Assembly: GCA_017620205.1 (NCBI GenBank)
Contig: JAFZQX010000003.1
Coordinates: 3,713 to 67,712, forward strand
Origin: Clostridia bacterium
GTDB taxonomy: Bacteria > Bacillota > Clostridia > UMGS1883 > UMGS1540
DNA length: 64,000 nucleotides
Direction of reading: 5' to 3'
The position numbers and the translations under genes were made by a program. Position 1 is the first letter of the stretch; every line of letters starts with the position of its first letter. The notes below the pieces were generated by a model. That model was not told where the DNA came from. It did not search any database and saw only the letters and a list, made by a program, of their open reading frames with translations. Positions 2,688 through 56,240 of the stretch are shown piece by piece.

Positions 2688-3564
2688 CGCAAAAACACTT
2701 GATAAGACCGAATATTTTTACGGTCATAAAGCCTGCGCGGGATGCGGAGGAAGCCTTGCCGTCAGAATTGCGCTGAAAGTTTTGGGAGAGAGGTCAATAG
2801 CGGTACTTCCTGCGGGATGTATGTCGGCAGTCGGTTTCAATTTTCCGCAGCTTTGCTTCGGAAATAACGCAATAATTTCTACATTTGCGGGAACGGCATC
2901 CATGCTTACCGGTGTTGAAGCGGGGCTTCGGGCGCAGGGAATTAAAGACTTTCACGCTGTAGGCTTTGCGGGCGACGGAGGAACCGCGGATATCGGCATT
3001 CAGGCGCTTTCGGGCGCAATAGACCGAAACGATAATATCATTTATATTTGTTATGACAATGAAGCTTATATGAATACGGGTATTCAAAAAAGCTCATTAA
3101 CGCCGTTCGGCGCGAAAACCACAACAACGCCTGCGGGAAAGAATATTCGCGGCAATTTAAGACCAAAAAAGAATATGTTTGAAATTGTTGCGGCACACGG
3201 CATTCCCTATGCCGCAACCGCAAGCATAGGCTATATAAATGATTTCATGCGTAAAGTCCAAAAGGCTTCCGAGATAGAAGGAACAAAATTTATTCATGTT
3301 CTTGCCCCGTGCCCGACAGGATGGGGAGTGCCGACAGACGCAACGGTTGACATAGCAAAAGAAGTAGTTGACTGCGGACTTTGGTATCTCGCGGAATATG
3401 AGGACGGTGAGTTTAAACTAAATCACAGACCGTCAGTTTTTACAGACGCAGGAGAATATTTAAGAAAGCAAAGCAGGTTCAGACACCTAAAGGATGAAGA
3501 TATAGAGACTATAATAAATGCCCGTGATAAAAAATGGGATTTTATAAATAAGAACTTTAAATAG
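2677..3564 (+). CDS. porB: 2-oxoacid:ferredoxin oxidoreductase beta subunit (TPP-binding)
   Basis: CAGCGG motif and a GDG...N TPP motif. RBS AGGAGG lies 7 nt upstream of the ATG at 2677. Confidence 0.85.
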   Translation: MAINAKTLDKTEYFYGHKACAGCGGSLAVRIALKVLGERSIAVLPAGCMSAVGFNFPQLCFGNNAIISTFAGTASMLTGVEAGLRAQGIKDFHAVGFAGDGGTADIGIQALSGAIDRNDNIIYICYDNEAYMNTGIQKSSLTPFGAKTTTTPAGKNIRGNLRPKKNMFEIVAAHGIPYAATASIGYINDFMRKVQKASEIEGTKFIHVLAPCPTGWGVPTDATVDIAKEVVDCGLWYLAEYEDGEFKLNHRPSVFTDAGEYLRKQSRFRHLKDEDIETIINARDKKWDFINKNFK

Positions 3565-6179: not shown

Positions 6180-6551
6180 CTATTTATATGCAACTGCATC
6201 TATTTCCGCCAGCGCTCCTTTCGGCAGGGCGGAAACCTCTACACAGGAACGGGCGGGTTTGTTTTTAAAGTATTTGGCGTATACTTCGTTGAATTTTGCA
6301 AAATCGTTTATGTCTTTCAGAAAACAAGTTGTTTTAATAACATTGTCAATGCTGCTGCCCGCTTCTTGCAAAACTGCGGACAGATTTTTAAGTATCCTTT
6401 CTGTCTGCGTCTCAATATCGGCGTGAACAACTTCTCCCGTAACGGGGTCTATAGGCATCTGACCCGAGGTGTAGATAAAATCGCCTGCTTTAATCGCCTG
6501 CGAATATGGCCCTACGGCTTTGGGGGCGGTTATTTCTTGTGTTTTATTCAT
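6180..6551 (-). CDS. ridA: RidA family reactive-intermediate deaminase (YjgF/TdcF)
   Basis: Full-length match to the RidA family in length and motifs. Confidence 0.85.
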
Positions 6552-7702
6552 CGTATTTTCCTTCTTTCATTATTATTTCCGGTTTCATCGAATTTTTCAA
6601 GAAACGAATGCTTTATGCCGTTTTGCTTGTACCCGATAAGGGTATCAAGATTTACGTTTTGTATGCTTTTATAAATATTGTTTTTAATTTGCGGATTGTC
6701 TTTTTCAAGCTCTGCAATCAGTTGTTTTGTTACCTGCCGTTTTGATTTGTTATCTGGATTACAGGAGGTACAGGTGTCGGTGAATTTACATGCGCATTGC
6801 AGAAAGTGCAGTCCGTTGTAATCGCGCCAATGCTTTATATCCTTTTCGTGAATCAAATATAGCGGTCTGATAAGCTCCATACCCTCAAAATTAGTGCTGT
6901 GCAGCTTTGGCATCATAGCCTGCATCTGACCGCCGAACAGCATACCCATCAGCGTTGTTTCAATAACATCGTCAAAATGATGACCGAGCGCGATTTTGTT
7001 GCACCCAAGCTCTTTTGCTTTGCTGTACAAATAGCCGCGTCTCATCCTCGCGCATATATAACACGGCGATTTTTCGATATGAAGCACCGACTCAAAAATA
7101 TTAGTTTCAAAAACGGTTATGGGGATATCCAAAAGACGTGCGTTTTCCTCTATGATTTTTCTGTTTTCCGCAGAATATCCCGGATCCATCACAAGGTAAA
7201 CTACTTCAAAGGGATATTTGTTGTGGCGTTTAAGCTCCTGAAACAGCTTTGCCATAAGCATACTGTCCTTGCCGCCCGAAATACAGACGGCAACCCTGTC
7301 GTTTTCCTTTAAAAGCTCATATTCATTAAGCGCCAAAGTGAACTTGCTCCAGATGCTTCTGTGAAACTTTTTTATAATGCTGTGTTCCATATCTTTTGCT
7401 TTATCTCTGTTTTCCGAGAGCGTTTTAAGCATATAGCCGTAGTAACCTTCTTTGAGATTTACGGCATTATATCCACGGCTTCTAAGCTCTTCGGAAACAT
7501 TATAGCTTATTATGCCGCTTTTACACATAACTACAATGAGCTTATCTTTTTGGAGCTCCGCAAGTCTGTCATTGATTTCGTTTTGAGGAATACTTACCGC
7601 GCCTTTTATGCTGCCGTATTTAAACGCAATTTCATCGCGGATGTCAACTATTATATAATTATCTAAACTGTTTAAATCCTTAACCGATATTTCTTCTTTC
7701 AT
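6548..7702 (-). CDS. ttcA: rhodanese domain fused to a TtcA-like PP-loop tRNA thiolase (2-thiocytidine synthetase family)
   Basis: N-terminal rhodanese with the active-site Cys (VVMCKSG). Then an SGGKDS PP-loop plus CxxC and C-x-x-x-x-x-C-x-x-C clusters as in TtcA. Confidence 0.7.
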
Positions 7703-7784
7703 TGTTCCGCCTATCTCCGCTCAATACGGTTTGCTTGTTTCATAAAAGTGTTCCGCCTTGCCCTTTGAGATTTTGGGGGAGGGG

Positions 7785-8939
7785 TTATAAACGCTTTTTA
7801 ATTTGAGTTATTGCTTTTTCCAATACGCTTTTCGGACAGGCAATATTCATGCGCATAAACCCGTTTCCGCCTTCTCCGAAAATAAAACCGCTGCTCATCC
7901 AAACGCCGCAGTCACGTATGAAGAATTCTTCAAGTTCACGGGAGTTTAAGCCGAGTTTCCGGCAATCAAGCCACATTAAATATGTGCCTTCCGGCGCTAT
8001 GGGTTTGATTTTTGTGTTTTCAAAGCTCTCTATTACGTAATCCGCGTTGCTTTTCAGATATTTCAGTAATTGCTGCAGCCACTCTTCGCCATGCCTATAT
8101 GCCGCTTTTGCGGCTGCCGCGGACATTATGCCCATTTCGCCCGCACAAGTTGACAGTATTTCTCTCTCTGTTTTATTGCGGATATCCGTGTTTGCTATTA
8201 TTAAATTGGCGCCTTTTATTCCCGCAAGATTAAATGTTTTTGTAACAGAAGTTACAGCTACCGTTATATCTGCCGCTTCTTTTGACAATGACGCTGCCGG
8301 GAAATGATTTTTAAACACCAGATCCGAATGGATTTCGTCGGAAACTATTATGACATTATGCCTCTTGCAAATGTTAACTACATTGCAAAGCTCTTCTTTG
8401 TCCCATACTCTGCTTACGGGATTGTGAGGAGAACAAAAAAGAAGAAGTTTTACGTTTTCTTCAACTATTCTGTTCTCAAGGTCATTAAAATCAATATAAT
8501 ACTTCTGCCCGTCAAAATTTAATACGCTTACAACGGGTCGCCTTTTAAGGGATTTTATAATGTTTAAAAAGGGGTGATATACCGGCTGCATAATAAGAAC
8601 GGAATCACCGGCTTTTGACAGAGCTCTGATTGCTGCCGATATCCCAAACAAAACGCCCTCACAGGGGACAATCCAATCTCGCTTTATATCAAAACCAAAC
8701 CGTTTTTTGTTCCATTTAATCAAAAGATCATAGTATTCATCGTCAAGCTCCGTGTAGCCGAATATGCCGCATTCAGAAGCAGACTGCAGGGCGTCTGTTA
8801 TTTCGGGCGCTGTCTTAAAATCCATATCCGCCACCCACATTGGAATAACATCGCTTACATCGGGATAACGGGGATGCTTCTTATACTTTATTGAATTTGT
8901 GTTTTTACGGTTATAGACCGTGTCAAAATCATATTTCAT
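7785..8939 (-). CDS. patB: PLP-dependent C-S lyase, MalY/PatB family (cystathionine beta-lyase/cysteine desulfhydrase-like)
   Basis: MKYDFDTVYNRKNTNSIKY... N-terminus characteristic of PatB/MalY. Start chosen at the internal ATG that abuts the tcdA stop. Confidence 0.8.
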   Translation of the reverse strand: MKYDFDTVYNRKNTNSIKYKKHPRYPDVSDVIPMWVADMDFKTAPEITDALQSASECGIFGYTELDDEYYDLLIKWNKKRFGFDIKRDWIVPCEGVLFGISAAIRALSKAGDSVLIMQPVYHPFLNIIKSLKRRPVVSVLNFDGQKYYIDFNDLENRIVEENVKLLLFCSPHNPVSRVWDKEELCNVVNICKRHNVIIVSDEIHSDLVFKNHFPAASLSKEAADITVAVTSVTKTFNLAGIKGANLIIANTDIRNKTEREILSTCAGEMGIMSAAAAKAAYRHGEEWLQQLLKYLKSNADYVIESFENTKIKPIAPEGTYLMWLDCRKLGLNSRELEEFFIRDCGVWMSSGFIFGEGGNGFMRMNIACPKSVLEKAITQIKKRL

Positions 8940-9688
8940 TTTATTAAATCTTTTATTACCTCTCCCGCTATTATAAGCCCCGCAACGCTCGGCACAAAAG
9001 CGTTGCTGCCCGGAACCTGATTGCGTACCGTACACGTTCTTTTTGTGTCAGGCGGACAAATGCAGTGGTGCTTACATGAATTATCGTCACTTTCAATCGG
9101 CGTTAAGGGAGACTCTTTTGAATAAACACATTTGAGCTTTTTTATTCCTCTTTTTCTGCACTCATAGCGCATAACTTTAGCAAGCGGACAAACAGAAGTT
9201 TTGTAAATATCCGCAACTTCAAATTTTGTGGGATCGAGTTTGTTGCCCGCGCCCATGCAAGAAATAATGGGAGTTTTGGTATCCGCCGCATTTTGAACTA
9301 AGGCTATCTTGCCTGTTACGGTATCAATAGCGTCTACAACATAATCGTAAAGTGAAAAATCAAACTCCGCGGCGGTTTCGGGCGTGTAAAAGGTTTTGTA
9401 GGTGCTTATTTTTATCCCGGGATTTATCTCCGCGATTCTTTCTGCGGCCACATCTACCTTGTATTTGCCGACAGTTTTTCTTGTCGCGTAAATTTGTCTG
9501 TTGATATTTGTCAGGCATATTTTGTCGTCATCTATTATATCTATGGCGCCTATACCGGAGAGGGCAAGCGCTTCCACGGTAAAGCCGCCTACACCGCCTA
9601 TCCCAAACACGGCAACGCGGGAGACCCAAAGCTTTTGCATTGCGTCTTTGCCTAAAATAAGCTCTGTTCTTGAATATTGATTCAACAT
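8936..9688 (-). CDS. tcdA: tRNA threonylcarbamoyladenosine dehydratase TcdA/CsdL (ThiF/MoeB E1-like)
   Basis: VAVFGIGGVGG...EALALSGIGAIDIIDDDKICLTNINRQ closely parallels E. coli TcdA. Confidence 0.85.
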   Translation of the reverse strand: MLNQYSRTELILGKDAMQKLWVSRVAVFGIGGVGGFTVEALALSGIGAIDIIDDDKICLTNINRQIYATRKTVGKYKVDVAAERIAEINPGIKISTYKTFYTPETAAEFDFSLYDYVVDAIDTVTGKIALVQNAADTKTPIISCMGAGNKLDPTKFEVADIYKTSVCPLAKVMRYECRKRGIKKLKCVYSKESPLTPIESDDNSCKHHCICPPDTKRTCTVRNQVPGSNAFVPSVAGLIIAGEVIKDLIK

Positions 9689-9700
9689 AAAATGTACTCC

Positions 9701-10276
9701 TTAAAGGATGTTTTCATAAATACTTTCACAGCTTCTCATTGCTAAAATTGTTTTGGAAATCAAATCGTCCAAAGACCATCCGAGCATTTCGGCGCCGCGC
9801 TCTATGACTTCTCTTGAACAGCCGGCGGCAAAATTTGAGTTTTTATACTTTTTCTTAACTGATTTGAGTTCAAGATCCGAAACGCTTTTTGAAGGTCGCA
9901 TAAGGGCAACAGCTCCGATAAGACCGGTAAGCTCATCTGCGGCATATAATACTTTTTCCATTTCGTGTTCAGGCTCTATATCAACCGTTATGGCGTAGCC
10001 GTGGCTTGCGGTTGCGTGAATCAATCTTTCGTCAAGCCCAAGCTCGCGCATTATTTCCTGTTCCTTTATACAGTGCTGAGTGGGAAACTGCTCAAAATCA
10101 AGGTCGTGAAGAAGACCTACTATACCCCAGAAATCTGCTTCATCACCGTATCCGAGCTCTCCTGCAAAATAGCGCATTACGCCTTCAACAATAACTGCGT
10201 GCTTTAAATGAAAATTGTCTTTATTATATTCACAAAGCAAATTCCACGCCGCATCTCTTGAAATCTCTTTATTCAT
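9701..10276 (-). CDS. HD-domain phosphohydrolase (HDIG-type)
   Basis: An H...HD...D metal-ligand pattern. The start was moved to the internal ATG with an RBS. Confidence 0.6.
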   Translation of the reverse strand: MNKEISRDAAWNLLCEYNKDNFHLKHAVIVEGVMRYFAGELGYGDEADFWGIVGLLHDLDFEQFPTQHCIKEQEIMRELGLDERLIHATASHGYAITVDIEPEHEMEKVLYAADELTGLIGAVALMRPSKSVSDLELKSVKKKYKNSNFAAGCSREVIERGAEMLGWSLDDLISKTILAMRSCESIYENIL

Positions 10277-10475
10277 CGTCTGACCCTCTTTCTTATCAAA
10301 CGGCAGTAAATACCTACTAATTTTATATATTATATACTTTTTTGCTATTAAAGTCAATCGTTTTGGGCCAGAAAGGCAGGCGCATAATATCTTTTGTTTA
10401 TATATAAAAGCTATAGCAAAGGAATAAACTATACATTTCTATAGCATTCAGGTATAGCTGCGCCAAAAAAATAGT

Positions 10476-10506
10476 ATTGACATATAATAAAAACGGTGTT
10501 ATAATA
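10476..10506 (+). promoter_or_regulatory. sigma-A promoter (TTGACA-17-TATAAT)
   Basis: Exact consensus -35 and -10 hexamers with a 17-nt spacer, about 55 nt upstream of the leader ORF. Confidence 0.8.
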
Positions 10507-10532
10507 CCTATAAAACACGTAGGATTTATAGG
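10507..10532. promoter_or_regulatory. perfect 8-bp inverted repeat CCTATAAA-N10-TTTATAGG at the transcription start
   Basis: Palindrome immediately after the -10 element. Possible operator or 5' hairpin. Confidence 0.45.
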
Positions 10533-10559
10533 ATATAAACTGCTGAAAGGAAATATATC

Positions 10560-10649
10560 ATGAAAAACATTAATAAATCACGTCAGATGAATAATTGTTT
10601 CTGTTGCTGTATTTTATGTGTCCGCATAGGCGATACGGTCTGTTTGTGA
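10560..10649 (+). CDS. Cys-rich leader peptide MKNINKSRQMNNCFCCCILCVRIGDTVCL (putative attenuator)
   Basis: RBS AAAGGA lies 9 nt upstream. 6 of 29 codons are Cys. The stop is 21 nt before an intrinsic terminator. Sits ahead of the Met-to-Cys operon. Not in the ORF track (below 60 aa). Confidence 0.55.
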   Translation: MKNINKSRQMNNCFCCCILCVRIGDTVCL

Positions 10650-10670
10650 TTGCTTTTTTTAAAGTATAAC

Positions 10671-10711
10671 GGCTCCGTCTATGTGTATAAAAGCAGGCGG
10701 AGCCTTTTTAT
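10671..10711 (+). terminator. intrinsic terminator/attenuator (GGCTCCGTCT...AGGCGGAGCC + TTTTTAT)
   Basis: 10-bp stem with one G-U wobble, a 14-nt loop and a U-tract, located in the 5' leader 27 nt upstream of the first structural gene. Confidence 0.65.
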
Positions 10712-10737
10712 ATATCATAAAGAAATGAGGATAGCTT

Positions 10738-11652
10738 ATGACATTATACAGGGAAAGCGTAACGGCAAAAATATGTGCTTTTTCAAGAGCGCATCACTCA
10801 ATGCGGAAAAGCTCAAAAATATTTGATGACAACCTCGCATTTGATATTCTGGGTAAAAAAGAATATGAAAGAATAGGACAGATGATAGAGAACGGATTTA
10901 AAAATCGTGAATATAATCCATTAAGCGCTTTCAACAAGCAATTTGTTTCGGAAGAAATAGAAAAATATATTTCTCCCATAACGCTTTCAAGAGCCGCTTT
11001 TGCGGAAGAAAGTCTTCTGCAGTTTGCCGAAAAGAAAGGCGCCTGTCAGTATGTTATTTGCGGTGCGGGAATGGATACGTTTCCATTTCGCAACGAAAAC
11101 AGGAATATAAAAATATTTGAACTTGATTATCCCGATACGCAGGAGTATAAACTGAAAAAAATCAATGAGCTTAAATGGGATATCCCGTCTGATGTTTACT
11201 ATGTGCCGATAGACTTTTCGAAGGACGATATGAGTATAAAGTTAAAAGAAGCCGGATTTTCAAAAGATATACCGACATTTTTTTCAATACTCGGAGTAAC
11301 ATATTATCTTACGCTTTCGGTTTTTACAAAGACGCTTGAGATGATAAATGAAATATCGTCTCCCGAAAGCGAAATAGTTTTTGATTATCCCGATGAAACA
11401 ACATTTGCCGGCAAAGACAATGAAAGGGTATTGCGTCTTCGCCAGATAGCGTCGGGACTCGGCGAGATAATGAAACAGGGCTTTAGCCTGAATGAAATTG
11501 AAGAAGCGCTCAAAAAAAGCGGTTTTGGAATAAAAAAGCATCTGCCGCCCGGGGAGATACAAAAAACACTTCGCGGGCGCGGCTACAGCCAACAGGCGTT
11601 TGAAAACATCCATTTAATCAAAGCGGTAAAAGGAAAGGAATTTAAAATATGA
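10738..11652 (+). CDS. class I SAM-dependent methyltransferase (TIGR00027/LCM-like O-methyltransferase family)
   Basis: Rossmann SAM-binding core (VICGAGMDT). First gene of the operon, overlapping metK by 4 nt. Confidence 0.65.
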
Positions 11653-12824
11653 GCAGTTTTATTTTTACATCGGAATCGGTAACAAGCGGTCATCCCGATA
11701 AAGTCAGCGATATAATTTCCGATTCAATTCTCGATGCGTATCTTGAAAAGGATCCTCATGCGAGAGTTGCGGTTGAAACAGTGGTAAAAAACAACACCGT
11801 GATTTTAGCGGGTGAAATATCGTCAAATGCAAAAACGGATATTGAAAATACAGTGCGGAAAGCGATAAATGAAATAGGATATAACAGAGGGGAACTCGGT
11901 TTCAGCGGCGATACGGCTGAAATAATAATTCGCATAGACAAACAGTCTCCCGATATAGCACAGGGAGTAGACAGCGCACTTGAAAGCCAAAGCGAAATAG
12001 GTGCGGGTGATCAGGGAATGGTTTTCGGATATGCGTCGGATGAAACGGAGGAGCTTATGCCTTTGCCCATATCCCTTGCGCATAAGCTTGCAAAAAAGCT
12101 TCAGGAAGTCCGTGAAAACGGCACTCTCCCGTATCTCCGCCCAGACGGAAAAACCCAGGTTTCGATCAAATATGAAAACGGCGTACCGGCAGGAATTGAC
12201 ACCGTTTTAGTATCCGCACAGCATGATGAAGACATAACGCAGGAACAAATCCGGAAAGATATAACAGAATATGTTATCAAACCCGTTATACCCGGGGAGT
12301 TTCTTGATATTACAACAAAAATACTTGTAAATCCTACGGGCAGGTTCGTAATAGGAGGCCCTGTGGGCGACAGCGGTCTTACAGGGCGCAAGATTATTGT
12401 AGATACATACGGAGGCGCCGCAAGACACGGCGGCGGTGCGTTTTCCGGGAAAGACCCGACAAAGGTTGACAGAAGCGCGGCATACGCGGCAAGATATGCT
12501 GCAAAAAATATAGTTGCGGCGAAGCTTGCAAAGAAAGCGGAGATACAAATCGCGTATGCAATAGGCGTTGCAAATCCCGTTTCGGTAAGCGTTGATACTT
12601 TCGGAACGGGCGTTGTTGCAGATGACAAGCTGCACGCGGCAATACTTGAAGTGTTTGATTTCAGACCCAAAGCAATCATAAAAGAGCTGGAGCTTCAAAA
12701 ACCGGTATATAAAGAAACCGCAGCTTACGGTCATTTCGGACGGGACGAATCTTTGTTTAATTGGGAAAAAACAGATAAAGCAGCACTGCTTATCGGATAT
12801 TTAAGAGAGCGTGGAGAAATATGA
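11649..12824 (+). CDS. metK: S-adenosylmethionine synthetase
   Basis: Canonical GHPDK motif and GGGAFSGKD motif. Confidence 0.95.
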
Positions 12825-13282
12825 AAACTATTGCGAGCTTTACAGTAAACCACGATAAACTGCAGAAGGGCATTTACATTTCAAGAAAAGACGGGGATGT
12901 TATTACATACGACATAAGAATGAAAAAGCCAAACGGCGGCGACTATCTTTCAAATGAAACTATTCATACAATAGAACATCTTTTTGCAACGTATGTGAGA
13001 AACGGAGCTTTTTCCGAAAGCGTAATATATGTCGGCCCTATGGGCTGCCGTACAGGGTTTTACTTTATCCTTAGAGATAAAGTGTCTCATGCCGAAGTGA
13101 TTTCACTTACAAAAGAAGTTTTTGCTTTTATCGCAAACTTTGAAGGCGCGATACCGGGAACAAGACGCATAGAGTGCGGCAATTACCTGGAACACAACCT
13201 TAAGGACGCAAAAAAAGAAGCAAGGGGAATGGGCAAAGTTTTATCGGACTGGACAGAGGAACAAATGTATTATGAAAACTAA
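12821..13282 (+). CDS. luxS: S-ribosylhomocysteine lyase
   Basis: HTIEH motif and the conserved C of the LuxS family. Confidence 0.9.
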
Positions 13283-13997
13283 TAAACTGATAGGCGTTAT
13301 AGGCGCAATGGAAAGCGAAACTGAAAAGATTAAAACATTGCTTACGGAAAAGCGTCTGTTTACCGAAAGCGGAATAGAATTTGTCAGGGGACGGCTGCAC
13401 GGGCAAGATGTTATTGTTGCCAAAAGCGGTATCGGAAAAGTAAACGCCGCAATATGTACGCAGATTATGATAGATAAGTTCTCTGTTGACTCAATAATCA
13501 ATACAGGCGTCGCGGGGGCAATTGACAAACGGCTGAGCGTGGGTGATCTGATAATCGGAACAACGCTTGTCCAGCATGATTTTGACGTAACTGCGTTCGG
13601 GTATTCCAAAGGATATATGTGTACGGGGAAAAACCCAAACGAGCCGACAAAGTATCATTCGGATAAACGCCTTGTAAATAAAATTTTCCGCGCGGCAAAA
13701 ACAAACTTAAAGGACAAAAGAATAATAACGGGCATCATAGCTTCCGGAGATGTGTTTGTTTCATCTTCCGAAGATAAAGAAATGTTAAAAGAGGTTTTTA
13801 ACGCGTCGGCAGTTGAAATGGAAGGCGCCGCAATTGCGCAAACGGCGGCGGCAGTTAGCGTTCCGTTTGCCGTTATAAGAACCGTGTCGGATAATGCGGA
13901 CGGAGAAGCAGAAAAATCTTTTGATATATTTGAAAAAGAAGCAGCCGAGCAGTCGGCATATGTAATAAATAAATTTATTGAATCGGAGGCAATCTGA
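13272..13997 (+). CDS. mtnN: 5'-methylthioadenosine/S-adenosylhomocysteine nucleosidase
   Basis: IGAMESE motif. Full-length Pfs/MtnN. Confidence 0.9.
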   Translation: MKTNKLIGVIGAMESETEKIKTLLTEKRLFTESGIEFVRGRLHGQDVIVAKSGIGKVNAAICTQIMIDKFSVDSIINTGVAGAIDKRLSVGDLIIGTTLVQHDFDVTAFGYSKGYMCTGKNPNEPTKYHSDKRLVNKIFRAAKTNLKDKRIITGIIASGDVFVSSSEDKEMLKEVFNASAVEMEGAAIAQTAAAVSVPFAVIRTVSDNADGEAEKSFDIFEKEAAEQSAYVINKFIESEAI

Positions 13998-13998
13998 A

Positions 13999-15159
13999 AT
14001 GAAAAGTTATAAAGAGATAGAATCCGCGCTTATACACGGCGGGATTTACGGTGATAAACAAACGGGAGCTGTAAATGTTCCTATTTACCAGACATCAACG
14101 TATGAGCAGGAAGCTCTCGGCAAGCATAAGGGCTATGAATATTCCCGCACGGGAAATCCTACCAGAGCAGCTCTTGAAGCGCTTATAGCCGAGCTTGAAG
14201 AAGGTACGGACGGCTTTGCGTTTGCGTCGGGAATGGCGGCTATCACGGCGGTGCTGAGCCTTTTTAAAACCGGAGACAAAATTATTATTTCAAGCAATGT
14301 ATATGGCGGCACCTTCCGCGTGCTTGACAAAGTCTTTACAAACTTTGGCATAGCATATTCCATAGAAGATACAACAGATATTGACGCCTTGGATAAAAAA
14401 ATAACTGACGATGTTAGGGCGGTTTTAATAGAAAGTCCGGCAAACCCGCTTTTGTCGGTTACCGATTTGTCCGCAGTTGCCGCGCTTGCCAAAAAACACG
14501 GAATTCTTACGATAGTAGATAATACTTTTATGACGCCGTATTTGCAAAAGCCCCTAAAACTCGGCGCCGATATTGTTTTGCACAGCGCAACGAAATACCT
14601 CGGCGGTCACAGCGACCTTGTAGCGGGACTTGTTGCGGTAAATTCCAAAGCGCTTGCAGAGCGTCTTGCGTTTATACAAAATGCGACAGGCGGTGTTTTG
14701 CAGCCGTTTGATTCTTTTTTACTTATACGCGGCATCAAAACTCTCGGAGTCAGAATGGACAGACATGTTGAAAATGCAGAAAAAGCGGCAGAGTTTTTAA
14801 GAAACCATAAAGCGGTCAAAAAAGTGTATTATCCGGGTTTTGAAGACGCCAAAGGTTATGAAATAAACAAAAAACAGGCAAAAAACGGCGGAGCTATGAT
14901 TTCCTTTGAGCTTTACGAAAACTACAATGCAGAAAAATTCTTCTCATCATTAAAGCTTATCGCGCTTGCCGAAAGTTTGGGCGGCGTAGAATCGCTTGTA
15001 TGCCACCCCGCCAGCATGACGCACGCCTCAATTCCGTATGAGACGCGCCAAAAGGTGGGGATTACGGACGGTCTTATTAGGCTGTCGATAGGTATAGAGC
15101 ATATAGATGATATTTTAAATGATTTAGAGCAGGCCATAACGGAAAGTGAGGTAAAATAA
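13999..15159 (+). CDS. mccB: Cys/Met-metabolism PLP enzyme (cystathionine gamma-lyase/homocysteine gamma-lyase, MccB/MetC-like)
   Basis: MetB/MetC/MccB family motifs including the PLP lysine region. Start at the internal ATG just after the mtnN stop. Confidence 0.8.
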   Translation: MKSYKEIESALIHGGIYGDKQTGAVNVPIYQTSTYEQEALGKHKGYEYSRTGNPTRAALEALIAELEEGTDGFAFASGMAAITAVLSLFKTGDKIIISSNVYGGTFRVLDKVFTNFGIAYSIEDTTDIDALDKKITDDVRAVLIESPANPLLSVTDLSAVAALAKKHGILTIVDNTFMTPYLQKPLKLGADIVLHSATKYLGGHSDLVAGLVAVNSKALAERLAFIQNATGGVLQPFDSFLLIRGIKTLGVRMDRHVENAEKAAEFLRNHKAVKKVYYPGFEDAKGYEINKKQAKNGGAMISFELYENYNAEKFFSSLKLIALAESLGGVESLVCHPASMTHASIPYETRQKVGITDGLIRLSIGIEHIDDILNDLEQAITESEVK

Positions 15160-16070
15160 TGAGTTATTATGAATCCATGCAGGATCTTATAGGAAACACC
15201 CCCATTGTAAAACTAAAGCACATTCCTTTGCCGGACGGTGTAAACCTTTTTGCCAAATTAGAGCTTTATAACCCTGCCGGCAGCGTTAAGGACAGGGTTG
15301 GAAAATATATGATAGAGCGTGCCGAAAAAGAGGGAAAGCTGAAACCCGGCGGAACTATTGTGGAAGGTACGGCAGGCAATACGGGACTTGGCATAGCTTT
15401 TGCGGCGCTTAACCGCAATTACCGCGTTATCTTTGCCGTGCCGACAAAATTCTCCGAAGAAAAGCAGACGCTTATGCGTGCGCTCGGAGCCGAAATTATA
15501 AATACACCGCGCGAAGACGGTATGCTCGGCGCTTCAAAAAAGGCTGAGGAGCTTAGAGAAGAAATACCCGGCGCCGTTTCTTTAAAGCAATTTGAAAATC
15601 CTGCAAATCCCCTTGCACATTATGAAACAACCGGACCCGAGATCTGGCGCGATTTAAGCGGAAAAATAGACTATCTGGTTGCAGGTGCGGGCAGCGGCGG
15701 TACATATTCGGGCGCGCTGCGTTATCTTAAGGAGCAAAACCCCGCTATAAAGGGAATACTTGCAGACCCCGTAGGCTCAACAATGGGCGGAGGCGAGCAC
15801 GGCGATTATAACATAGAGGGCATCGGAAACGACTTTATAGCAAAGACAATGGATATGTCACTTGTTGACGATGTTATAAAAATAAATGACGAGGAAGCGT
15901 TTTCTGGCGCCCGTATGCTGGCGCTCAGAGAAGGTATAATAGCGGGCTCGTCGTCCGGGGCGGCGCTTGCGGCAGCACAAAAGCTTGCAAAGAGCGGTGT
16001 TAAGGGAAATATTGTTATAGTTCTTCCCGACAGGGGCGACAGATATTTCAGTAAGAATTTATATTTATAA
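15159..16070 (+). CDS. mccA: cysteine synthase family (OAS-dependent cystathionine beta-synthase MccA-like / CysK)
   Basis: Canonical PLP-lysine motif (GSVKDR) of the cysteine synthase family. Operon context suggests reverse transsulfuration. Confidence 0.8.
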   Translation: MSYYESMQDLIGNTPIVKLKHIPLPDGVNLFAKLELYNPAGSVKDRVGKYMIERAEKEGKLKPGGTIVEGTAGNTGLGIAFAALNRNYRVIFAVPTKFSEEKQTLMRALGAEIINTPREDGMLGASKKAEELREEIPGAVSLKQFENPANPLAHYETTGPEIWRDLSGKIDYLVAGAGSGGTYSGALRYLKEQNPAIKGILADPVGSTMGGGEHGDYNIEGIGNDFIAKTMDMSLVDDVIKINDEEAFSGARMLALREGIIAGSSSGAALAAAQKLAKSGVKGNIVIVLPDRGDRYFSKNLYL

Positions 16071-16101
16071 AATTAAAAAATGCGAAAGCCGGGTGGAGTT
16101 T

Positions 16102-16539
16102 TTGAGAATATCAACAAAAGGGCGGTATGCTTTACGCGTGCTCGTATATCTTGCGGAGAATTTAAACGGTAACTATATCGCGTTAAAGGAAATAGCAAAA
16201 AGCCAACACATATCAAAAAAATACTTGGAACAAATCGTTCCCGTTTTAACGAGAAACGGACTGCTGCAGGTAAACCGCGGCTTTCAGGGGGGATACCGGC
16301 TCAGCCGTAACCCCGATAAATTTACAGTCGGCTCTGTACTGAGAATGACGGAGGGAAGCCTGTCTTCCGAGGGAAATAATGAAAGCGGTTTTGCAAACAG
16401 CGAATACGATGAAGACGGCGAAATACTCTTTGTATGGCAGGGACTTAATAAAACAATAAACACTTATCTTGACAGTATAACAATTCAAGATATTATAGAC
16501 AACAAACAGGATGAATATGTAAATGATTATGTAATTTGA
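16102..16539 (+). CDS. cymR: Rrf2 family transcriptional regulator (CymR/IscR-like)
   Basis: MRISTKGRYALRVL N-terminal HTH of the Rrf2 family. TTG start with a GGTGGAG RBS. Confidence 0.75.
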   Translation: MRISTKGRYALRVLVYLAENLNGNYIALKEIAKSQHISKKYLEQIVPVLTRNGLLQVNRGFQGGYRLSRNPDKFTVGSVLRMTEGSLSSEGNNESGFANSEYDEDGEILFVWQGLNKTINTYLDSITIQDIIDNKQDEYVNDYVI

Positions 16540-16578
16540 TGTTTGAAGCGAAAGTCTTTAAACAGGAGGAAAAAACAA

Positions 16579-17508
16579 ATGACACTGCAGCAAATATTTT
16601 ATGCGCTTACAATATCTGAAACAGGTTCGATGAACAAAGCGGCTGAGGTTTTGTTTATATCACAGCCGTCTTTGACAAACGCGATAAAAGAGCTTGAAAA
16701 AGACGTTGGTATAACCATATTTTCAAGAACGGGCAGAGGCGCCGTGCCTACAAAAGACGGAGAAGAATTTCTCCTATATGCCCGTCAGGTTTATCAGCAA
16801 TACGAGCTTTTACAGCAAAAGTATGGGGAAAAAGGAAACGTTAAACGGAAGTTCGGAGTTTCCTCACAGCACTATTCCTTTGCCGTTAAAGCGTTTGTGG
16901 AAACCGTTAAAAAGCTTGATTCAAGAAAATACGAATTTGCAATACGAGAAGAAAAAACTCATGTGGTAATTCAGGATGTCGGAAATCTCAGGAGCGAAAT
17001 AGGCATTATATATTTAAGCGATTTTAACCGTAAGGTAATAGAAAAAATGCTGAAAGAATATGAGCTTGAATTTCAAAAGCTGATAGAATGCAACGCTTAT
17101 GTATACCTATGGAAAAATCATCCTCTTGCAAAAGAGAAGTCAATCAGTTTTGAACAGCTGAGACAATACCCCTGCCTGTCTTTTGAGCAGGGCGAAAAGG
17201 GCTCCTTCTATTTTGCAGAGGAAATATTAAGCGATAGCGACTATGCGCAGACTATAAAGACATGCGACAGAGCAACCATGCTCAATTTAATGGTAGGGCT
17301 AAACGGATACACGCTTTGCTCGGGAATTATATGCGGTGAACTAAACGGAAGCGACTATGTAGTTGTTCCGTTTGAAGATGATGCAGTTAACCATAACAGC
17401 ATTTTAGAGATAGGATATATTATAAAAAAGCATGGCATCTTAAGCTCTGCCGGTGAAATCTACATCAAAGAAGTACAAAAATATTTGAAAGAGCAGTCGG
17501 ATATTTAA
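16579..17508 (+). CDS. LysR family transcriptional regulator
   Basis: N-terminal HTH with a LysR substrate-binding domain. AGGAGG RBS. Confidence 0.8.
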   Translation: MTLQQIFYALTISETGSMNKAAEVLFISQPSLTNAIKELEKDVGITIFSRTGRGAVPTKDGEEFLLYARQVYQQYELLQQKYGEKGNVKRKFGVSSQHYSFAVKAFVETVKKLDSRKYEFAIREEKTHVVIQDVGNLRSEIGIIYLSDFNRKVIEKMLKEYELEFQKLIECNAYVYLWKNHPLAKEKSISFEQLRQYPCLSFEQGEKGSFYFAEEILSDSDYAQTIKTCDRATMLNLMVGLNGYTLCSGIICGELNGSDYVVVPFEDDAVNHNSILEIGYIIKKHGILSSAGEIYIKEVQKYLKEQSDI

Positions 17509-17530
17509 TGGTTGCTGTGTTATAAAACCA

Positions 17531-17568
17531 AAAACAACTTTGTGCCATCATGGCACAAAGTTGTTTTC
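17531..17568. terminator. bidirectional terminator (perfect 15-bp inverted repeat)
   Basis: aaaaACAACTTTGTGCCAtcaTGGCACAAAGTTGTtttcg, between convergent genes. Confidence 0.85.
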
Positions 17569-17570
17569 GT

Positions 17571-17921
17571 TTAGTCATATATTATCTCGTTTAATATGAT
17601 TTCTTCGGCTTGCGCTTTGCAGACATTGGCAAGTCCAACCCATTTAAGCTGATCCTTTTGCTTTAACTCTTCCGTTACGCCTGCCGATTTCATCAAATTG
17701 GGCAAAATGCTTTCAAGCCTTTCTCTTGCAATTCTGTCAATCTCATTTAAGTGCGGAACAAGTTCTGCGTGAAGTATCAGTCTGTTCCATAATCCCGTCC
17801 TTTGATTTTTTAAATATTCCTCCCGCATCATTCCGTATTTTCCGTATGTTCGTTTTGTTTCAGGATAACTCAAATTCGGCAAATAATAATCTCCCGCTTT
17901 CCTGTAAGTAATCTCTTTCAT
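17571..17921 (-). CDS. TnpV-like small transposon-associated protein
   Basis: Size and N-terminus (MKEITYRK..DYY.PNL) resemble TnpV proteins of Tn4451-family elements. Recalled similarity only. Confidence 0.45.
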   Translation of the reverse strand: MKEITYRKAGDYYLPNLSYPETKRTYGKYGMMREEYLKNQRTGLWNRLILHAELVPHLNEIDRIARERLESILPNLMKSAGVTEELKQKDQLKWVGLANVCKAQAEEIILNEIIYD

Positions 17922-18192
17922 AAATAAACCATCCTTTCATATTTGATGATTTCATTTTAAACCACTTTTGAAATATACACAACGCTGTCAAATTTTAAAA
18001 GCTCCGAATGGAGCGCAGACCGCAGAAGTTTTTTCTGCGTTTTGGGGGATTGGGGAAGTCGCCCCAACAAGCAAAAATGCAAATTCCGCACATCTGCGGG
18101 ATTTGCATTTTTTGTGCTTTTAGGTCATAAAAGCATCGCTTGCCGGAATGTCCGACTAAAAAATTTTTTCAAAATAGGGTACCGAAAGTACT

Positions 18193-18215
18193 GTTTTTAT
18201 TCCATATAAGTGAAG
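18193..18215. repeat. 23-bp direct repeat copy 1 (GTTTTTATTCCATATAAGTGAAG)
   Basis: Exact copy occurs again at 18279..18301. Confidence 0.9.
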
Positions 18216-18278
18216 AGATTTTTCTAATCACATGAAAACAATTTGTAAACATTTTGGAAATGACCCTCTCAAAACCCC

Positions 18279-18301
18279 GTTTTTATTCCATATAAGTGAA
18301 G
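18279..18301. repeat. 23-bp direct repeat copy 2
   Basis: Exact copy of 18193..18215, 86 bp downstream, just before a TTGACA. Confidence 0.9.
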
Positions 18302-18406
18302 GGTGTTTTTTGACACGCTTGCAAAATAATCGGTTTGTGTTAGATTTAAGGTAAAGCCTGATTGTTGCGGCTGACCTTAATATGCAAACAAAAGGAGGTC
18401 AGCAAA

Positions 18407-18595
18407 GTGCGGAATAAGGATAAGCGTCAGCCGCAGGGAACAAACAAATACGAATTTGAAGGACGCGAGTATATCGTCGAGTCTGTTTATAATGATAACG
18501 GACTTGAAGATATAGCCAGTATATTAAGAAGGATGATACTTTGCCAAGCGCAGACGCTAAAGGAGAAACACAATGAAAAGCAAAACCAGGGATAA
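18407..18595 (+). CDS. small hypothetical protein upstream of and overlapping the recombinase gene
   Basis: GTG start with a strong AAAGGAGG RBS. 62 aa. Overlaps the recombinase start by 23 nt. Confidence 0.4.
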   Translation: MRNKDKRQPQGTNKYEFEGREYIVESVYNDNGLEDIASILRRMILCQAQTLKEKHNEKQNQG

Positions 18596-20255
18596 AACAG
18601 CTTCACTTTATTTAAGACTCAGCCGAGATGACAATTTGGAGGGTGAGAGCTACAGCATCAGCAATCAAAAGAAGCTTTTGACAAAAGTAGCAAAAGAAAA
18701 GGGATATACAAATCTGCTTATCTATATCGATGACGGAATTTCGAGCGTTACTATGAACCGTCCCGGATATACCGGCATGATTGAGGATTTTGAAAACAAT
18801 AAATCTTCGGCACTGTTTGTAAAGGATTTGTCGCGAATAGGCAGAAACTATATTGAAGTCGGAAAACTGACAGAGGAATTTCTGCCTGACCACGATATTC
18901 GTCTTGTTGCGGTTTCGGACGGTATTGACAGTCAGGAAGGCGAGAGCGAGTTCGCACCTATTAAAAACTTGTTTAACGAGTGGTACGCAAGAGATATCTC
19001 AAAAAAACGCCGAATAAGCAATAAGATAAAAGGCAATTCGGGCGAGCCGCTGAGCCTGCCGCCTTACGGATATATAAAAGATCCCGATGGGAAGGGATGG
19101 ATTATTGATGAGGAAGCAGCCGGCGTAGTCAGAAAAATCTTTGATATGAGTATGGAAGGTTACGGTACAAGTCAAATAGCAGACGTGCTTGAAGACAAAA
19201 AGATTTTAACGCCGATAGAATACTGTAAAAGCAGAGGAATTAAAAAACCGAGCAACAAACAGAAAGTAGGTCTTTACTGTTGGAATTCCTCTACAGTAAA
19301 CAAAATTCTCGGTACGCAAGAGTATTGCGGAGATATTATAAACTTTAAAACGTATTCAAAATCGTATAAGAACAAAAAGCGATATGCCAATAATCCCGAG
19401 AATATTGTTGTGTTTAAAGACGCTAATCCCGCTATAATTGAACGCGCGGTATTTGAAAAGATACAGAGCAAGAGGGGCAAAACGCGAAAACGAAAAACTG
19501 CGACAGGCGAAAAGAATATGTTTTCGGGACTTCTTGTGTGTGCCGACTGCGGCAGCAATATGGGTTATCACTTTAATCAGGTAAATCACGAAATAACATA
19601 TTTCAACTGTACAGGTTATAATAAAGGTAAACGTAAAATCTGTAATTCAACGCATTATATAAGAACGGACTTTTTGGAACAAGTCGTATTAGGTGAAATT
19701 AAAAGGCTAACAAAGTTTGCTCAAAAGTATGAAGATGAGTTTGCGGAGCAGGTGATGGGCGCTACTATAAAAAATCTTGAAGAAGAAGTATCGCTGAAAG
19801 AGAAGGAACTTAATAAATTAAAAGCGAGAGATAAAGAAATTGATGTACTGTATGAAAAGATTTACGAAGACAATGCCCTCGGCAAGATAAATGATGATCG
19901 CTTTGCAAAATTATCATCCAAATACGATGAAGAACAAAAAGAAATAAGCGACAAAATTAAAGTCTTAACTGACGAAATATCCGAAAAGAAAAGCAAAACA
20001 GTAACGGCTGATATGTTTTTAGACGCGGTGCGTAAATATACAAGGATAAAGAAGCTGACGCCGCAGATTGTAAATGAGCTGATTGAGAAAATAGAGGTTT
20101 ATCAATCCGAAAAGATTGACGGCAAAACAGTTCAACGCCTAAGAATACATTATAACTGCATAGGTACAATGGAAATACCGAGATTAAAACAAATACCCGA
20201 TAATCAAGTAAAAATCCACACCAGACAAGGCGTGGACATAGAATATTATGCATAA
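18573..20255 (+). CDS. large serine recombinase (resolvase/invertase N-domain + recombinase + zinc ribbon + coiled coil)
   Basis: SLYLRLSRDD catalytic motif with the nucleophile Ser. 560 aa, with the Cys-rich zinc ribbon and coiled coil of large serine recombinases. Confidence 0.85.
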   Translation: MKSKTRDKTASLYLRLSRDDNLEGESYSISNQKKLLTKVAKEKGYTNLLIYIDDGISSVTMNRPGYTGMIEDFENNKSSALFVKDLSRIGRNYIEVGKLTEEFLPDHDIRLVAVSDGIDSQEGESEFAPIKNLFNEWYARDISKKRRISNKIKGNSGEPLSLPPYGYIKDPDGKGWIIDEEAAGVVRKIFDMSMEGYGTSQIADVLEDKKILTPIEYCKSRGIKKPSNKQKVGLYCWNSSTVNKILGTQEYCGDIINFKTYSKSYKNKKRYANNPENIVVFKDANPAIIERAVFEKIQSKRGKTRKRKTATGEKNMFSGLLVCADCGSNMGYHFNQVNHEITYFNCTGYNKGKRKICNSTHYIRTDFLEQVVLGEIKRLTKFAQKYEDEFAEQVMGATIKNLEEEVSLKEKELNKLKARDKEIDVLYEKIYEDNALGKINDDRFAKLSSKYDEEQKEISDKIKVLTDEISEKKSKTVTADMFLDAVRKYTRIKKLTPQIVNELIEKIEVYQSEKIDGKTVQRLRIHYNCIGTMEIPRLKQIPDNQVKIHTRQGVDIEYYA

Positions 20256-52472: not shown

Positions 52473-52619
52473 CTAATTCTTATGACACTCTCCACACATG
52501 GGGCATGAGCCGCAGGAGCAACCGCAGGATGATTTACCTTGCTTTTTGTTTTTCACCATTTTAAATATTATGCCTGCGACTATGGCAATAAGGATAATGC
52601 TTATTATAACATTCGCCAT
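52473..52619 (-). CDS. FeoB-associated Cys-rich small membrane protein (48 aa) MANVIISIILIAIVAGIIFKMVKNKKQGKSSCGCSCGSCPMCGECHKN
   Basis: Starts 3 nt after the feoB stop. One TM segment then a CGCSCGSC..C..C tail. Absent from the ORF track (below 60 aa). Confidence 0.65.
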   Translation of the reverse strand: MANVIISIILIAIVAGIIFKMVKNKKQGKSSCGCSCGSCPMCGECHKN

Positions 52620-56194: not shown

Positions 56195-56205
56195 AAATTT
56201 GATAT

Positions 56206-56240
56206 AAAAAACATCCGTGAGACCGAATGGTTTCACGGAT
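56206..56240. terminator. bidirectional terminator (CATCCGTGAGA...TTTCACGGATG)
   Basis: Stem flanked by A-runs and T-runs. Confidence 0.75.

Follow-up and report, generated by a model that had tools for sequence, protein, structure and literature searches.

A polycysteine leader and a conserved operator probably place a methionine-to-cysteine salvage operon of Clostridia under the control of cysteine scarcity

Clostridial operons that lead from methionine to cysteine include ubiG-mccB-mccA in Clostridium acetobutylicum, a ubiG operon with LuxS supply in Clostridium perfringens, and ubiG-mccB-luxS-mccA in Clostridium botulinum (PMC2566862; PMC2940859). These ubiG-mccBA operons are induced by cysteine limitation via premature-termination control, for which a Cys-specific T-box is responsible (PMC2566862; PMC2940859). 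The T-box reads uncharged tRNA directly and is joined in C. acetobutylicum by an S-box-controlled antisense RNA. In Bacillus subtilis, the yrrT-mtnN-mccA-mccB-yrhC operon is repressed by CymR (PMC2566862; PMC3828012). A related arrangement is described here in a 64-kb window from the metagenome-assembled genome (MAG) of a Clostridia bacterium, the window being the whole stretch of DNA analysed, whose positions serve as coordinates throughout. Six enzyme genes, a methyltransferase gene followed by metK, luxS, mtnN and genes of the mccB and mccA types, stand in front of two regulator genes and behind a short polycysteine open reading frame (ORF) with a terminator hairpin. The segment 10477-17569 is likely a single sulfur-salvage transcription unit converting Met to Cys. 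We regard it as probable that this unit is switched on by Cys scarcity via two devices, an operator at the promoter and a ribosome-mediated attenuator in the leader.

Amino acid operons of Firmicutes were thought to rely on T-boxes and not on classical attenuation (PMC1262725; PMC2965389). Leader peptides are rare in this phylum, known cases being a His leader in bacilli (PMC2965389) and the Leu-rich ilv leader of Staphylococcus aureus (PMC5794164). Elsewhere, mycobacteria contain polycysteine leaderless small ORFs (sORFs) that constitute a 'Cys ribulon' (bioRxiv 10.1101/834739; predicted in PMC1262725), and according to the authors of the mycobacterial study cysteine attenuation mediated by an upstream ORF (uORF) had not previously been described (bioRxiv 10.1101/834739). 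The uORFC-8-2 motif, found upstream of cysS in Rhodobacterales, has been proposed to be a ribosome-mediated transcription attenuator (PMC8632094). No description of a polycysteine attenuator in Firmicutes was found in the literature searched, nor is there one in Rfam 15, which does not amount to proof of absence.

The operon is built like the known ubiG-mccBA and yrrT-mtnN-mccAB operons, of which it is a variant with a different methyltransferase. It resembles the clostridial ubiG operons in having the methyltransferase first, mccB before mccA, luxS in some cases and an apparent Met-to-Cys direction. In contrast to them, its methyltransferase is of the LCM/TIGR00027 and not the UbiG type, metK and mtnN are added in the window, and a translated polycysteine ORF is found where the ubiG operons have a T-box. 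Like the yrrT operon, it brings together a methyltransferase, mtnN, mccA and mccB, and it has an Rrf2-family regulator without an Fe-S cluster and an operator at the promoter. The yrrT operon, however, has another gene order, neither metK nor luxS and no attenuator, and the Rrf2 protein of the window scores below the CymR equivalog level.

Mycobacterial sORFs similarly place runs of Cys codons upstream of cysteine-metabolism operons, which they control by sensing cysteine through ribosome stalling. These actinobacterial sORFs are leaderless, have neither a Shine-Dalgarno sequence nor a terminator, and act translationally by unmasking a downstream ribosome-binding site, whereas the window and its Clostridia relatives have a 5' untranslated region (UTR), a Shine-Dalgarno sequence, a terminator and a competing antiterminator. 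Polycysteine sensing is all that the two have in common. The uORFC-8-2 motif likewise consists of a Cys-codon uORF followed by a terminator-like stem and a U-run, but it has only two tandem Cys codons, precedes a tRNA synthetase gene in alpha-proteobacteria, shows no sequence relationship to the present leader and was not among the Rfam matches obtained here. The layout is that of the trp, his and leu attenuators, with the regulatory codons in segment 1, pairing of 1:2 and 3:4 for termination and of 2:3 for read-through, and a stop codon shortly after segment 2. Unlike in those attenuators, the amino acid sensed would be Cys, segment 1 is the Cys run itself (UGY repeats pair with ACAGGCGG), and the attenuator mostly lies inside an operon, between cysK and the downstream genes. 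The regulatory leader appears to be a variant of a known mechanism in an unexpected phylum.

In the window, the leader upstream of the methyltransferase gene is 380 bp long and holds a short ORF (Table 1) behind a 5' UTR of ~48 nt. The Cys codons of this ORF start at 10596, 10602, 10605, 10608, 10617 and 10641, five of them within 8 codons. Scanning a single genome for each species gave 183 relatives, of which 80 loci (labelled in the style of L003) were fetched and used for counts. They come mostly from rumen and gut MAGs of Ruminococcus, Oscillospiraceae, Lachnospiraceae and Christensenellales; cultured carriers are Eubacterium oxidoreducens, Anaerotignum propionicum, Bianquea renquensis and Ruminiclostridium sufflavum. 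We defined a polycysteine leader as a short ORF, within 450 nt upstream of the methyltransferase gene, in which a stretch of 8 residues includes no fewer than 4 Cys. By this measure 68 of 78 related loci have one; the corresponding rates are 1.8% for dinucleotide shuffles, 0.3% for other positions in these loci and 0% for the reverse strand. In 66 of the 68 family leaders the ORF has a start codon in frame behind a Shine-Dalgarno sequence, versus 8 of 136 out-of-frame controls. The encoded peptides usually contain ...CCCMCC-DTGG... or ...CCLCCC..TGG... motifs. Since the T and G of the Cys codons are invariant while the third base toggles (TGT 175, TGC 95), selection appears to act on codon identity in the Cys run.

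Four segments recur in the family leaders: the Cys-codon run (1), ACACAGGCGGC (2), GCCGUCUGU (3), and ACAGGCGG with a U-run (4). The arms of the terminator are conserved as CCGYCUGU on the 5' side and ACAGGCGG, followed by U's, on the 3' side. Codons GAC-ACA-GGC-GGC specify the conserved DTGG that follows the Cys run; their sequence nearly repeats the terminator 3' arm and is hence complementary to the 5' arm. In region 2 (ACA-GGC-GGC), the degenerate third positions scarcely vary, and so the constraint on it appears to act on the RNA and not on the peptide. Region 2 of the siblings, (G)ACACAGGCGGC, forms a duplex of -13 to -18 kcal/mol with the terminator 5' arm. Among 49 loci with clean terminators, the ORF segment that pairs best with the 5' arm starts 20-26 nt past the first Cys codon and, at the median, 5 nt past the last. 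The stop codon follows 3-26 nt past segment 2. The Cys run, in turn, folds onto region 2 at -8 kcal/mol or below in 43 of 44 sibling loci (mean -15.5 kcal/mol, median z -2.7). In canonical leaders (columns ~63-90 of subgroup alignment A3; L059 7906-7928), a small conserved hairpin, GUUUUAU...UAAAAC, separates region 2 from the terminator and encloses the stop codon; it may be a pause or spacer element.

Pairing of region 2 with the terminator is locus-specific. Of 11 positions, 8.9 pair between region 2 and the 5' arm of the same locus, compared with 8.45 +/- 0.09 when arms are exchanged among loci (0 of 2000 permutations) and 4.4 for other 11-mers. Helices 2:3, 3:4 and 1:2 are paired at 97.5%, 93.9% and 95.1%, respectively, in 27 canonical leaders, versus 21-57% with slid partners. 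Three-way compensatory changes distinguish subgroups in L006 (UCAG:CUGA:UCAG), L019 (GGACGG:CCGUCC:GGACGG), L042 (an extra G, U and G) and L031 (extended GGCGGAG:CUCCGC). A broader alignment of 38 leaders has 16 of 25 pairs changing on both sides (60 cells), compared with 6.7 +/- 1.5 in shuffles (0 of 500) and 4-7 in slid controls. These pair counts derive from A3 and from a model-based alignment, A5; a MAFFT alignment (A2) misaligned the 5' arm with long terminator loops, and an ungapped arm finder mis-picked arms in bulged stems and in the window. Folding was also simulated at the stage when region 4 has yet to be transcribed. Here an antiterminator of 6 bp or more formed in 38 of 44 loci if a ribosome occupied the first Cys codon, in 23 without a ribosome and in 16 if the ribosome stood at the stop codon. 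Taken together, the comparison strongly supports a four-segment, trp-type attenuation logic in the family leaders.

Other leader-based devices were sought in the same place. No T-box (RF00230), S-box/SAM (S-adenosylmethionine) riboswitch or other Rfam family reached the gathering score in the window and 18 related loci, and a T-box or S-box was rejected as the leader regulator. At E <= 10 the window leader returned noise only, and an Rfam search of both strands found no SAM riboswitch antisense to the operon. The window contains no other polycysteine leader. Its ORF at 52473-52619, a small Cys-rich membrane-type protein next to feoB, was rejected, as were other candidates that are long and unconserved. 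The 48-residue product of this minus-strand ORF is hydrophobic at its N-terminus and Cys-rich in its tail (…SSCGCSCGSCPMCGECHKN), is encoded immediately downstream of a FeoB-like gene (52623-55097), and is probably a FeoB-associated Cys-rich membrane protein that has nothing to do with the attenuator. At locus L058 alone, a different Cys-rich mini-ORF, MLSVNELFCCACCVTVLIFIRRYKGER (3161-3244, minus strand), ends 20 nt upstream of PatB.

Transcription of the window leader presumably begins near 10512, downstream of a consensus promoter (Table 1), and the initiation region carries a 26-bp dyad, the operator. A weight matrix, for which 9 sibling sites but not the window were used, gave 60 matches in 2.05 Mb at a threshold of at least 16 bits versus 0 in shuffled sequence; the window operator scores 32.5 bits. 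Almost all matches fall at one of three kinds of site. About 35 loci have the operator 20-200 nt upstream of cysK, and no polycysteine leader was found in front of the cysK genes of siblings. In loci without cysK, the operator is upstream of the leader (window, L003, L014, L015, L020, L025, L032, L042, L075). It also occurs in the divergent Rrf2-LysR intergenic region of L021 and L048, as well as in L004 and L016. The operator starts 2-4 nt past the -10 box wherever a promoter is recognisable, which places it in repressor position, and promoter and operator are kept in register as a module in L009, L015, L018, L024, L031, L038, L047 and L048. Matches of 16-22 bits away from mapped genes (L017 11644, L009 2812, L071 1173, L080 4544, L072 239) may mark further regulon members.

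The adjacent Rrf2 gene is the foremost candidate for the operator-binding protein. It had been called CymR-like in the preliminary description of this DNA; its position beside the operon is as described and its product has zero cysteine residues in 148 aa, so that like CymR it cannot hold an Fe-S cluster, but it reaches only 101 bits on the NCBIfam CymR equivalog NF047409, whose cutoff is 195. Its similarity to solved structures is about equally divided between apo-IscR (4cic, 83 bits) and CymR (2y75, 69 bits). The operator may resemble the B. subtilis CymR box. With moderate confidence, the operator is predicted to be bound by the Rrf2 protein as a repressor, the LysR protein being the alternative. 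The LysR gene follows directly, as had been noted, and an orthologue (58-69% identity) is found near the operon in 41 of the 80 loci; an Rrf2 gene is near it in 15, mostly on the opposite strand. The conserved operator and the polycysteine leader also lend support to the earlier suggestion that the promoter is probably Cys-regulated.

Eight co-oriented ORFs occupy 10738-17508 of the plus strand. All of them were found in the places and the order (MTase-metK-luxS-mtnN-mccB-like-mccA-like, then Rrf2 and LysR) of the preliminary description, and its overlapping or abutting genes were borne out by measurement of the junctions: 4-nt overlaps at methyltransferase/metK and at metK/luxS, 11 nt at luxS/mtnN and 1 nt at mccB/mccA. 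A 22-nt gap separates mccA from the Rrf2 gene, and 3-39 nt lie between Rrf2 and LysR, depending on the start codon chosen. ATG 13999 is the likely start of mccB in place of 13978, as is ATG 16579 of LysR in place of 16543; LysR possibly has a candidate promoter of its own at 16469-16496.

Table 1. Predicted features of the salvage unit, in window coordinates; profile scores are given with their cutoffs where available.
Feature	Position	Strand	Details
Sigma-A promoter	10477-10505	+	TTGACA-17 nt-TATAAT, extended TG; 12/12 consensus; sole perfect site in 9500-18700
Operator (dyad)	10507-10532	+	26 bp, CCTATAAAACACGTAGGATTTATAGG; starts 2 nt past -10 box
Shine-Dalgarno sequence of leader ORF	10546-10551	+	AAAGGA; 9 nt before ATG 10560
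Leader ORF	10560-10649	+	29 codons, MKNINKSRQMNNCFCCCILCVRIGDTVCL; six Cys codons
Attenuator, extent by covariance model R2	10593-10710	+	34.1 bits, E about 1e-6
Cys-codon run (region 1)	10596-10619	+	putative sensor; in siblings pairs with region 2
Region 2 (antiterminator strand)	10623-10632	+	CGCAUAGGCG; 10-bp pairing with CGUCUAUGUG (10676-10685) in terminator 5' arm
Intrinsic terminator	10671-10709	+	5' arm GGCUCCGUCU 10671-10680; 3' arm AGGCGGAGCC 10695-10704; U-run 10705-10709
LCM/TIGR00027-type SAM-dependent methyltransferase (SAM to S-adenosylhomocysteine, SAH)	10738-11652	+	PF04072 LCM E 1e-38; TIGR00027 140 bits, cutoff 93.6
metK, methionine adenosyltransferase (Met to SAM)	11649-12824	+	TIGR01034 562 bits, cutoff 309
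luxS, S-ribosylhomocysteine lyase (S-ribosylhomocysteine to homocysteine)	12821-13282	+	NF002604 181 bits, cutoff 158
mtnN, methylthioadenosine/SAH nucleosidase (SAH to S-ribosylhomocysteine)	13272-13997	+	NF004079 254 bits, cutoff 169
mccB-type cystathionine gamma-lyase/homocysteine desulfhydrase	13978-15159	+	Cys_Met_Meta_PP PF01053 E 2e-155; best NCBIfam PRK07671 573.7 bits, cutoff 594
mccA-type CysK-like PALP enzyme	15159-16070	+	303 aa; cysKM 338.6, cysK 336.2, cystathionine beta-synthase 336.9 bits, each under cutoff
Rrf2-family regulator	16093-16539	+	148 aa; PF02082 E 4e-31
LysR-family regulator	16543-17508	+	Pfam/NCBIfam profile search
Strong bidirectional terminator, end of unit	17529-17569		19-bp stem

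For the direction of flux, the two pyridoxal phosphate (PLP) enzymes at the end of the pathway were examined. The preliminary description proposed Met to Cys and named the grouping of the PALP enzyme with CysK and of the lyase with MetC as the sign of opposite flux; the lyase was found to group with MccB-type cystathionine gamma-lyases (CGLs) and the PALP enzyme apart from CysK. The best match of the lyase among solved structures is 7d7o (481 bits), followed by the CGLs of Helicobacter pylori, Lactobacillus plantarum and S. aureus. The near structures also include 4l0o, 6ldo, 7mcb and 6kgz, with S. aureus MccB among them, all being MccB-type CGLs, whereas MetC-type beta-lyases are more remote. 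The lyase, of the Cys/Met-metabolism PLP family, thus appears to be an MccB-type CGL.

The PALP enzyme consists of a PALP domain only and lacks a Bateman domain. The closest solved structure, 5xw3 (318 bits, 30 bits ahead of the next), and 6ahi, which also ranks high, are presumably the O-acetylserine-dependent cystathionine beta-synthases (CBSs) of Bacillus anthracis and H. pylori. High among the matches, too, is 5b1h, the O-acetylserine-dependent CBS of L. plantarum (PMC7483736). On the cysK equivalog model the enzyme stays under the cutoff (336 versus 351 bits), as do the operon enzymes across the relatives (336-343 bits), while a second PALP gene just upstream of the operon in relatives scores 471-475 bits, so that the relatives appear to carry a true CysK together with a distinct MccA-like enzyme. 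The operon enzyme is probably an MccA-type, CysK-like CBS dependent on O-acetylserine. Neither a homoserine-activating enzyme nor a methionine synthase is present with the operon and, since metK, mtnN and luxS are, a Met-to-Cys reading stands.

The methyltransferase that would supply SAH belongs to another family than those of the described operons. It matches LCM (PF04072) only, and no Methyltransf_11/25-type family, even at E <= 10. The absence of any YrrT/UbiG-type family match supports the earlier proposal of non-orthologous displacement, in which an LCM-type enzyme would have taken over an analogous role from YrrT or UbiG without being their orthologue. Residues G109, G111, D113, E128, D130 and D159, predicted to bind SAM, are invariant in 20 homologues. 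Searching the sequence against solved structures gave one weak match only. The fold of an AlphaFold model (pLDDT 82, pTM 0.84) is closest to the mycobacterial TIGR00027 proteins ML2640c and Rv0731c and next to the carboxyl methyltransferases LCMT-1, PPM1 and TYW4, from which one might guess at carboxyl methylation. The protein has > 1500 homologues, and the operon family would give a subfamily of the poorly understood TIGR00027/LCM methyltransferases a physiological context, the supply of SAH for conversion of Met to Cys. One homologue cluster, P0102 (79 member sequences), is a predicted single product with an LCM domain and a MetK N-terminal domain, which is probably no true fusion but a reflection of the 4-nt methyltransferase/metK overlap where a contig ends.

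In the pathway envisaged, MetK would make SAM from Met and the methyltransferase would convert SAM to SAH, which MtnN and LuxS would take to homocysteine. The MccA-type enzyme would then join homocysteine and O-acetylserine to cystathionine, from which the MccB-type lyase would free Cys. Control would be exerted in two layers. In the first, the operator by the -10 box would be repressed by the cluster-less, CymR-like Rrf2 protein, tracking cysteine or O-acetylserine status. In the second, the leader ORF would be translated while the leader RNA is being transcribed. With ample Cys-tRNA(Cys), the ribosome would reach the stop codon, the terminator would form and transcription would end 28 nt before the first gene. 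With scarce Cys-tRNA(Cys), the ribosome would stall early in the Cys run, leaving region 2 free to pair with the terminator 5' arm, and polymerase would read through. The attenuator would thereby sense how far tRNA(Cys) is charged before ATP and Met are spent. In most relatives the operator-controlled promoter would drive cysK, and the attenuator would then decide on the costlier, Met-consuming branch; in the window, cysK is absent and the promoter-operator module would act directly before the leader.

Several observations weigh against a Met-to-Cys unit switched on by Cys scarcity, the evidence for which is computational throughout. The variation in the canonical subgroup is one-sided only (G.U to A-U or G-C), without true covariation, and the covarying 38-leader alignment was fitted to a model and so leans towards structure. 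Equilibrium folding of the full leader favours the terminator in 34-42 of 44 loci; as the terminator wins at equilibrium, the switch must be kinetic, as in classical attenuators. In the window, the antiterminator is weak (-9.4 kcal/mol, z -0.8), region 2 can pair locally with a second GGUCUGU copy inside the ORF, and equilibrium folding keeps the terminator at every simulated ribosome position. A covariance model from canonical leaders only (R1) has the window leader as its top match, but at 19.2 bits and E 0.021, too little to stand as proof by itself. The operator could equally be a LysR site, since Rrf2 and LysR genes both flank its intergenic copies, and the Rrf2 protein fails the CymR equivalog cutoff. 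MccA-type enzymes can keep O-acetylserine sulfhydrylase activity (PMC7483736) and the lyase is slightly below the PRK07671 cutoff, so the enzyme specificities are provisional assignments. Finally, an essential metK would be awkward behind a cysteine-repressed attenuator unless there is a second copy or leaky read-through. As a second, flux-dedicated copy, metK would be reasonable behind a Cys switch; no further copy of metK or of any other operon gene lies elsewhere in the 64-kb window.

The weakness of the window's antiterminator leaves room for an explanation by promoter-only control, exerted by Rrf2, LysR or both, with the mini-ORF and hairpin a decayed attenuator remnant in which the hairpin would work as a constitutive partial terminator or an RNA-stability element. 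No other leader of the set has diverged as far; the ORF, at 29 codons, is shorter than the 40-50 of the family, and the ancestral region 2, GACACAGGCGGC, has mutated to GAUACGGUCUGU. Such decay is nevertheless unlikely. The ORF retains its Shine-Dalgarno sequence, start, six Cys codons and stop, and region 2 still starts 3-5 nt after the last Cys codon of the run (family median 5 nt). The change in region 2 is matched in the terminator arm (AUAG:CUAU in the window, ACAG:CUGU in siblings), which argues for continued selection on pairing. The broadened model R2, built from 38 sibling leaders and no window sequence, recognises the element with far greater significance than R1 (Table 1). Moreover, a terminator hairpin of -19 kcal/mol so close to the first gene would silence the operon permanently unless relieved. 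Judged by its sequence, the window element is a genuine member of the attenuator family, and it is fairly likely to be a working cysteine switch.

Two further observations concern these window features. A second R2 match (56201-56318, minus strand, 22.3 bits) was dismissed as a chance match, since it consists of the 3' end and terminator of an aquaporin-family gene. A long hairpin is predicted between 10522-10538 and 10606-10623, joining the operator-bearing 5' UTR to the Cys-codon region and enclosing the Shine-Dalgarno sequence and start codon; it is not a feature of sibling leaders.

The gene content of the operon could also be read as serving primarily the activated methyl cycle, SAH detoxification or autoinducer-2 (AI-2) production, with the two PLP enzymes disposing of homocysteine or making H2S. 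Four of the six enzymes are indeed part of the SAM cycle, annotation describes those of the MccB type as bifunctional (the title of PRK07671 being 'bifunctional cystathionine gamma-lyase/homocysteine desulfhydrase'), and with no methionine synthase to close the cycle, homocysteine must be removed. This purpose is quite improbable in view of the sensor and of the architecture among relatives. The sensor consists of Cys codons, which would make expression depend on tRNA(Cys) charging instead of on SAM or Met, and there is no S-box. What is conserved is the core of methyltransferase (MT), mccB and mccA, present in at least 55 loci, while metK, luxS and mtnN vary. Among the 62 loci that are complete downstream, 24 have MT-luxS-mccB-mccA, 13 MT-metK-luxS-mccB-mccA, 12 MT-mccB-mccA and 5 MT-metK-mccB-mccA, and only one (L075) has all six enzyme genes as in the window. 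In siblings, the unit also sits behind cysK: a true cysK is immediately upstream in 52 of 72 loci. It is absent there in the window, the 64 kb of which contain no cysK.

The six-gene form of the window is therefore the rare and most complete version of a widespread architecture. The preliminary description had found it unusual to tie metK to a probably Cys-regulated promoter, which is overstated, since metK is common in this place in the clade, being inside the operon in 26 of 80 loci. Likewise, the mcc order that it called reversed is so only relative to B. subtilis, as mccB before mccA is the usual clostridial order (PMC2566862).

A Cys-rich ORF that directly follows cysK in most genomes might, in principle, encode a functional small peptide with a metal-binding or redox role, or the precursor of a peptide made by ribosomes and modified after translation (RiPP), the hairpin then being the terminator of the upstream gene, cysK in those 52 loci. 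Cys-rich small proteins do exist, the product of 52473-52619 in the window being one. We consider this explanation even less probable than a methyl-cycle function. The element keeps its place before the methyltransferase gene without cysK in the window, L003, L015, L020, L025, L042 and L075. The N-terminal peptide sequence differs between subgroups, yet the motif after the Cys run is fixed at degenerate third positions and matches the terminator arm, as expected of an RNA constraint, and no maturation, export or immunity genes are nearby. Least credible of all is reverse flux from Cys to Met, with the PALP enzyme an ordinary CysK and the lyase MetC or MetB: both families are hard to assign by sequence (the PALP enzyme scores near-equally on cysK and CBS models, and the lyase reaches 564 bits on a cystathionine gamma-synthase model), but the best matches are MccB-type CGLs and CBS-type CysK-like enzymes with true CysK separate in siblings, metK, mtnN and luxS make sense only for Met to homocysteine, the homoserine-activating enzyme and methionine synthase are missing, and sensing Cys shortage would be perverse for a Cys-consuming pathway.

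If the leader functions as predicted, it would be the first cysteine attenuator of the terminator/antiterminator type known for a biosynthetic operon, and also the first in Firmicutes. Conserved in ~70 Clostridia species, it would exemplify the replacement of one sensing device by another at the same operon, and its compactness (< 200 nt) might also suit it to use as a cysteine-responsive switch in anaerobes. The ability to draw Cys from Met appears to be shared by many rumen and gut Clostridia, which bears on sulfur nutrition and on the production of H2S and AI-2 in these ecosystems. On a broader proposition our judgement is evenly balanced: that rumen and gut Clostridia have swapped the T-box and S-box control of sulfur amino-acid metabolism typical of Firmicutes for a ribosome-sensed regulon, comprising the polycysteine attenuator between cysK and the Met-to-Cys block, Met/Cys-rich leaders before MetNIQ- and Ssu-type importers, and a shared operator for a CymR-like Rrf2 protein.

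A second leader-peptide element is found just downstream of LysR in several siblings (L003 11101-11196, L009 13145-13291, L015 12628-12723, L038 12753-12854, L048 7277-7375), with variants in L022 (9031-9126) and L041 (7511-7606). It has its own TTGACA/TATAAT promoter, a Shine-Dalgarno sequence, a Met/Cys-rich mini-ORF (...ENMCMCMMR..DCC(I/V).RCC(M/V)SRM) and a terminator, GGAAGCC...GGCUUC followed by U's. Importers of the ABC type for sulfur compounds lie downstream, MetQ/NlpA-MetN(NIL)-MetI in L038 and an SsuA/NMT1-type binding protein with an ATPase and a permease in L009. The element looks like a Met/Cys-sensing attenuator and is absent from the window. There, a transposon lies directly past the LysR terminator, comprising a minus-strand TnpV gene (17571-17921) and a gene for a large serine recombinase that contains DUF4368 (18573-20255), and its insertion at 17571-20255 may account for the absence of the transporter-attenuator module that follows LysR in siblings.

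On the other side of the operon, a gene set on the minus strand (6548-10357) is divergent from the operon promoter region. Its members include a ThiF-family protein (8936-9688), a PatB-family C-S lyase (7785-8939), a rhodanese and PP-loop protein (6548-7702), and an HD-like protein without a Pfam match that has neighbours of 74-82% identity in L016, L026 and L047. PatB also adjoins the operon in several siblings, and with the operator located between PatB and cysK the two may share a regulon.

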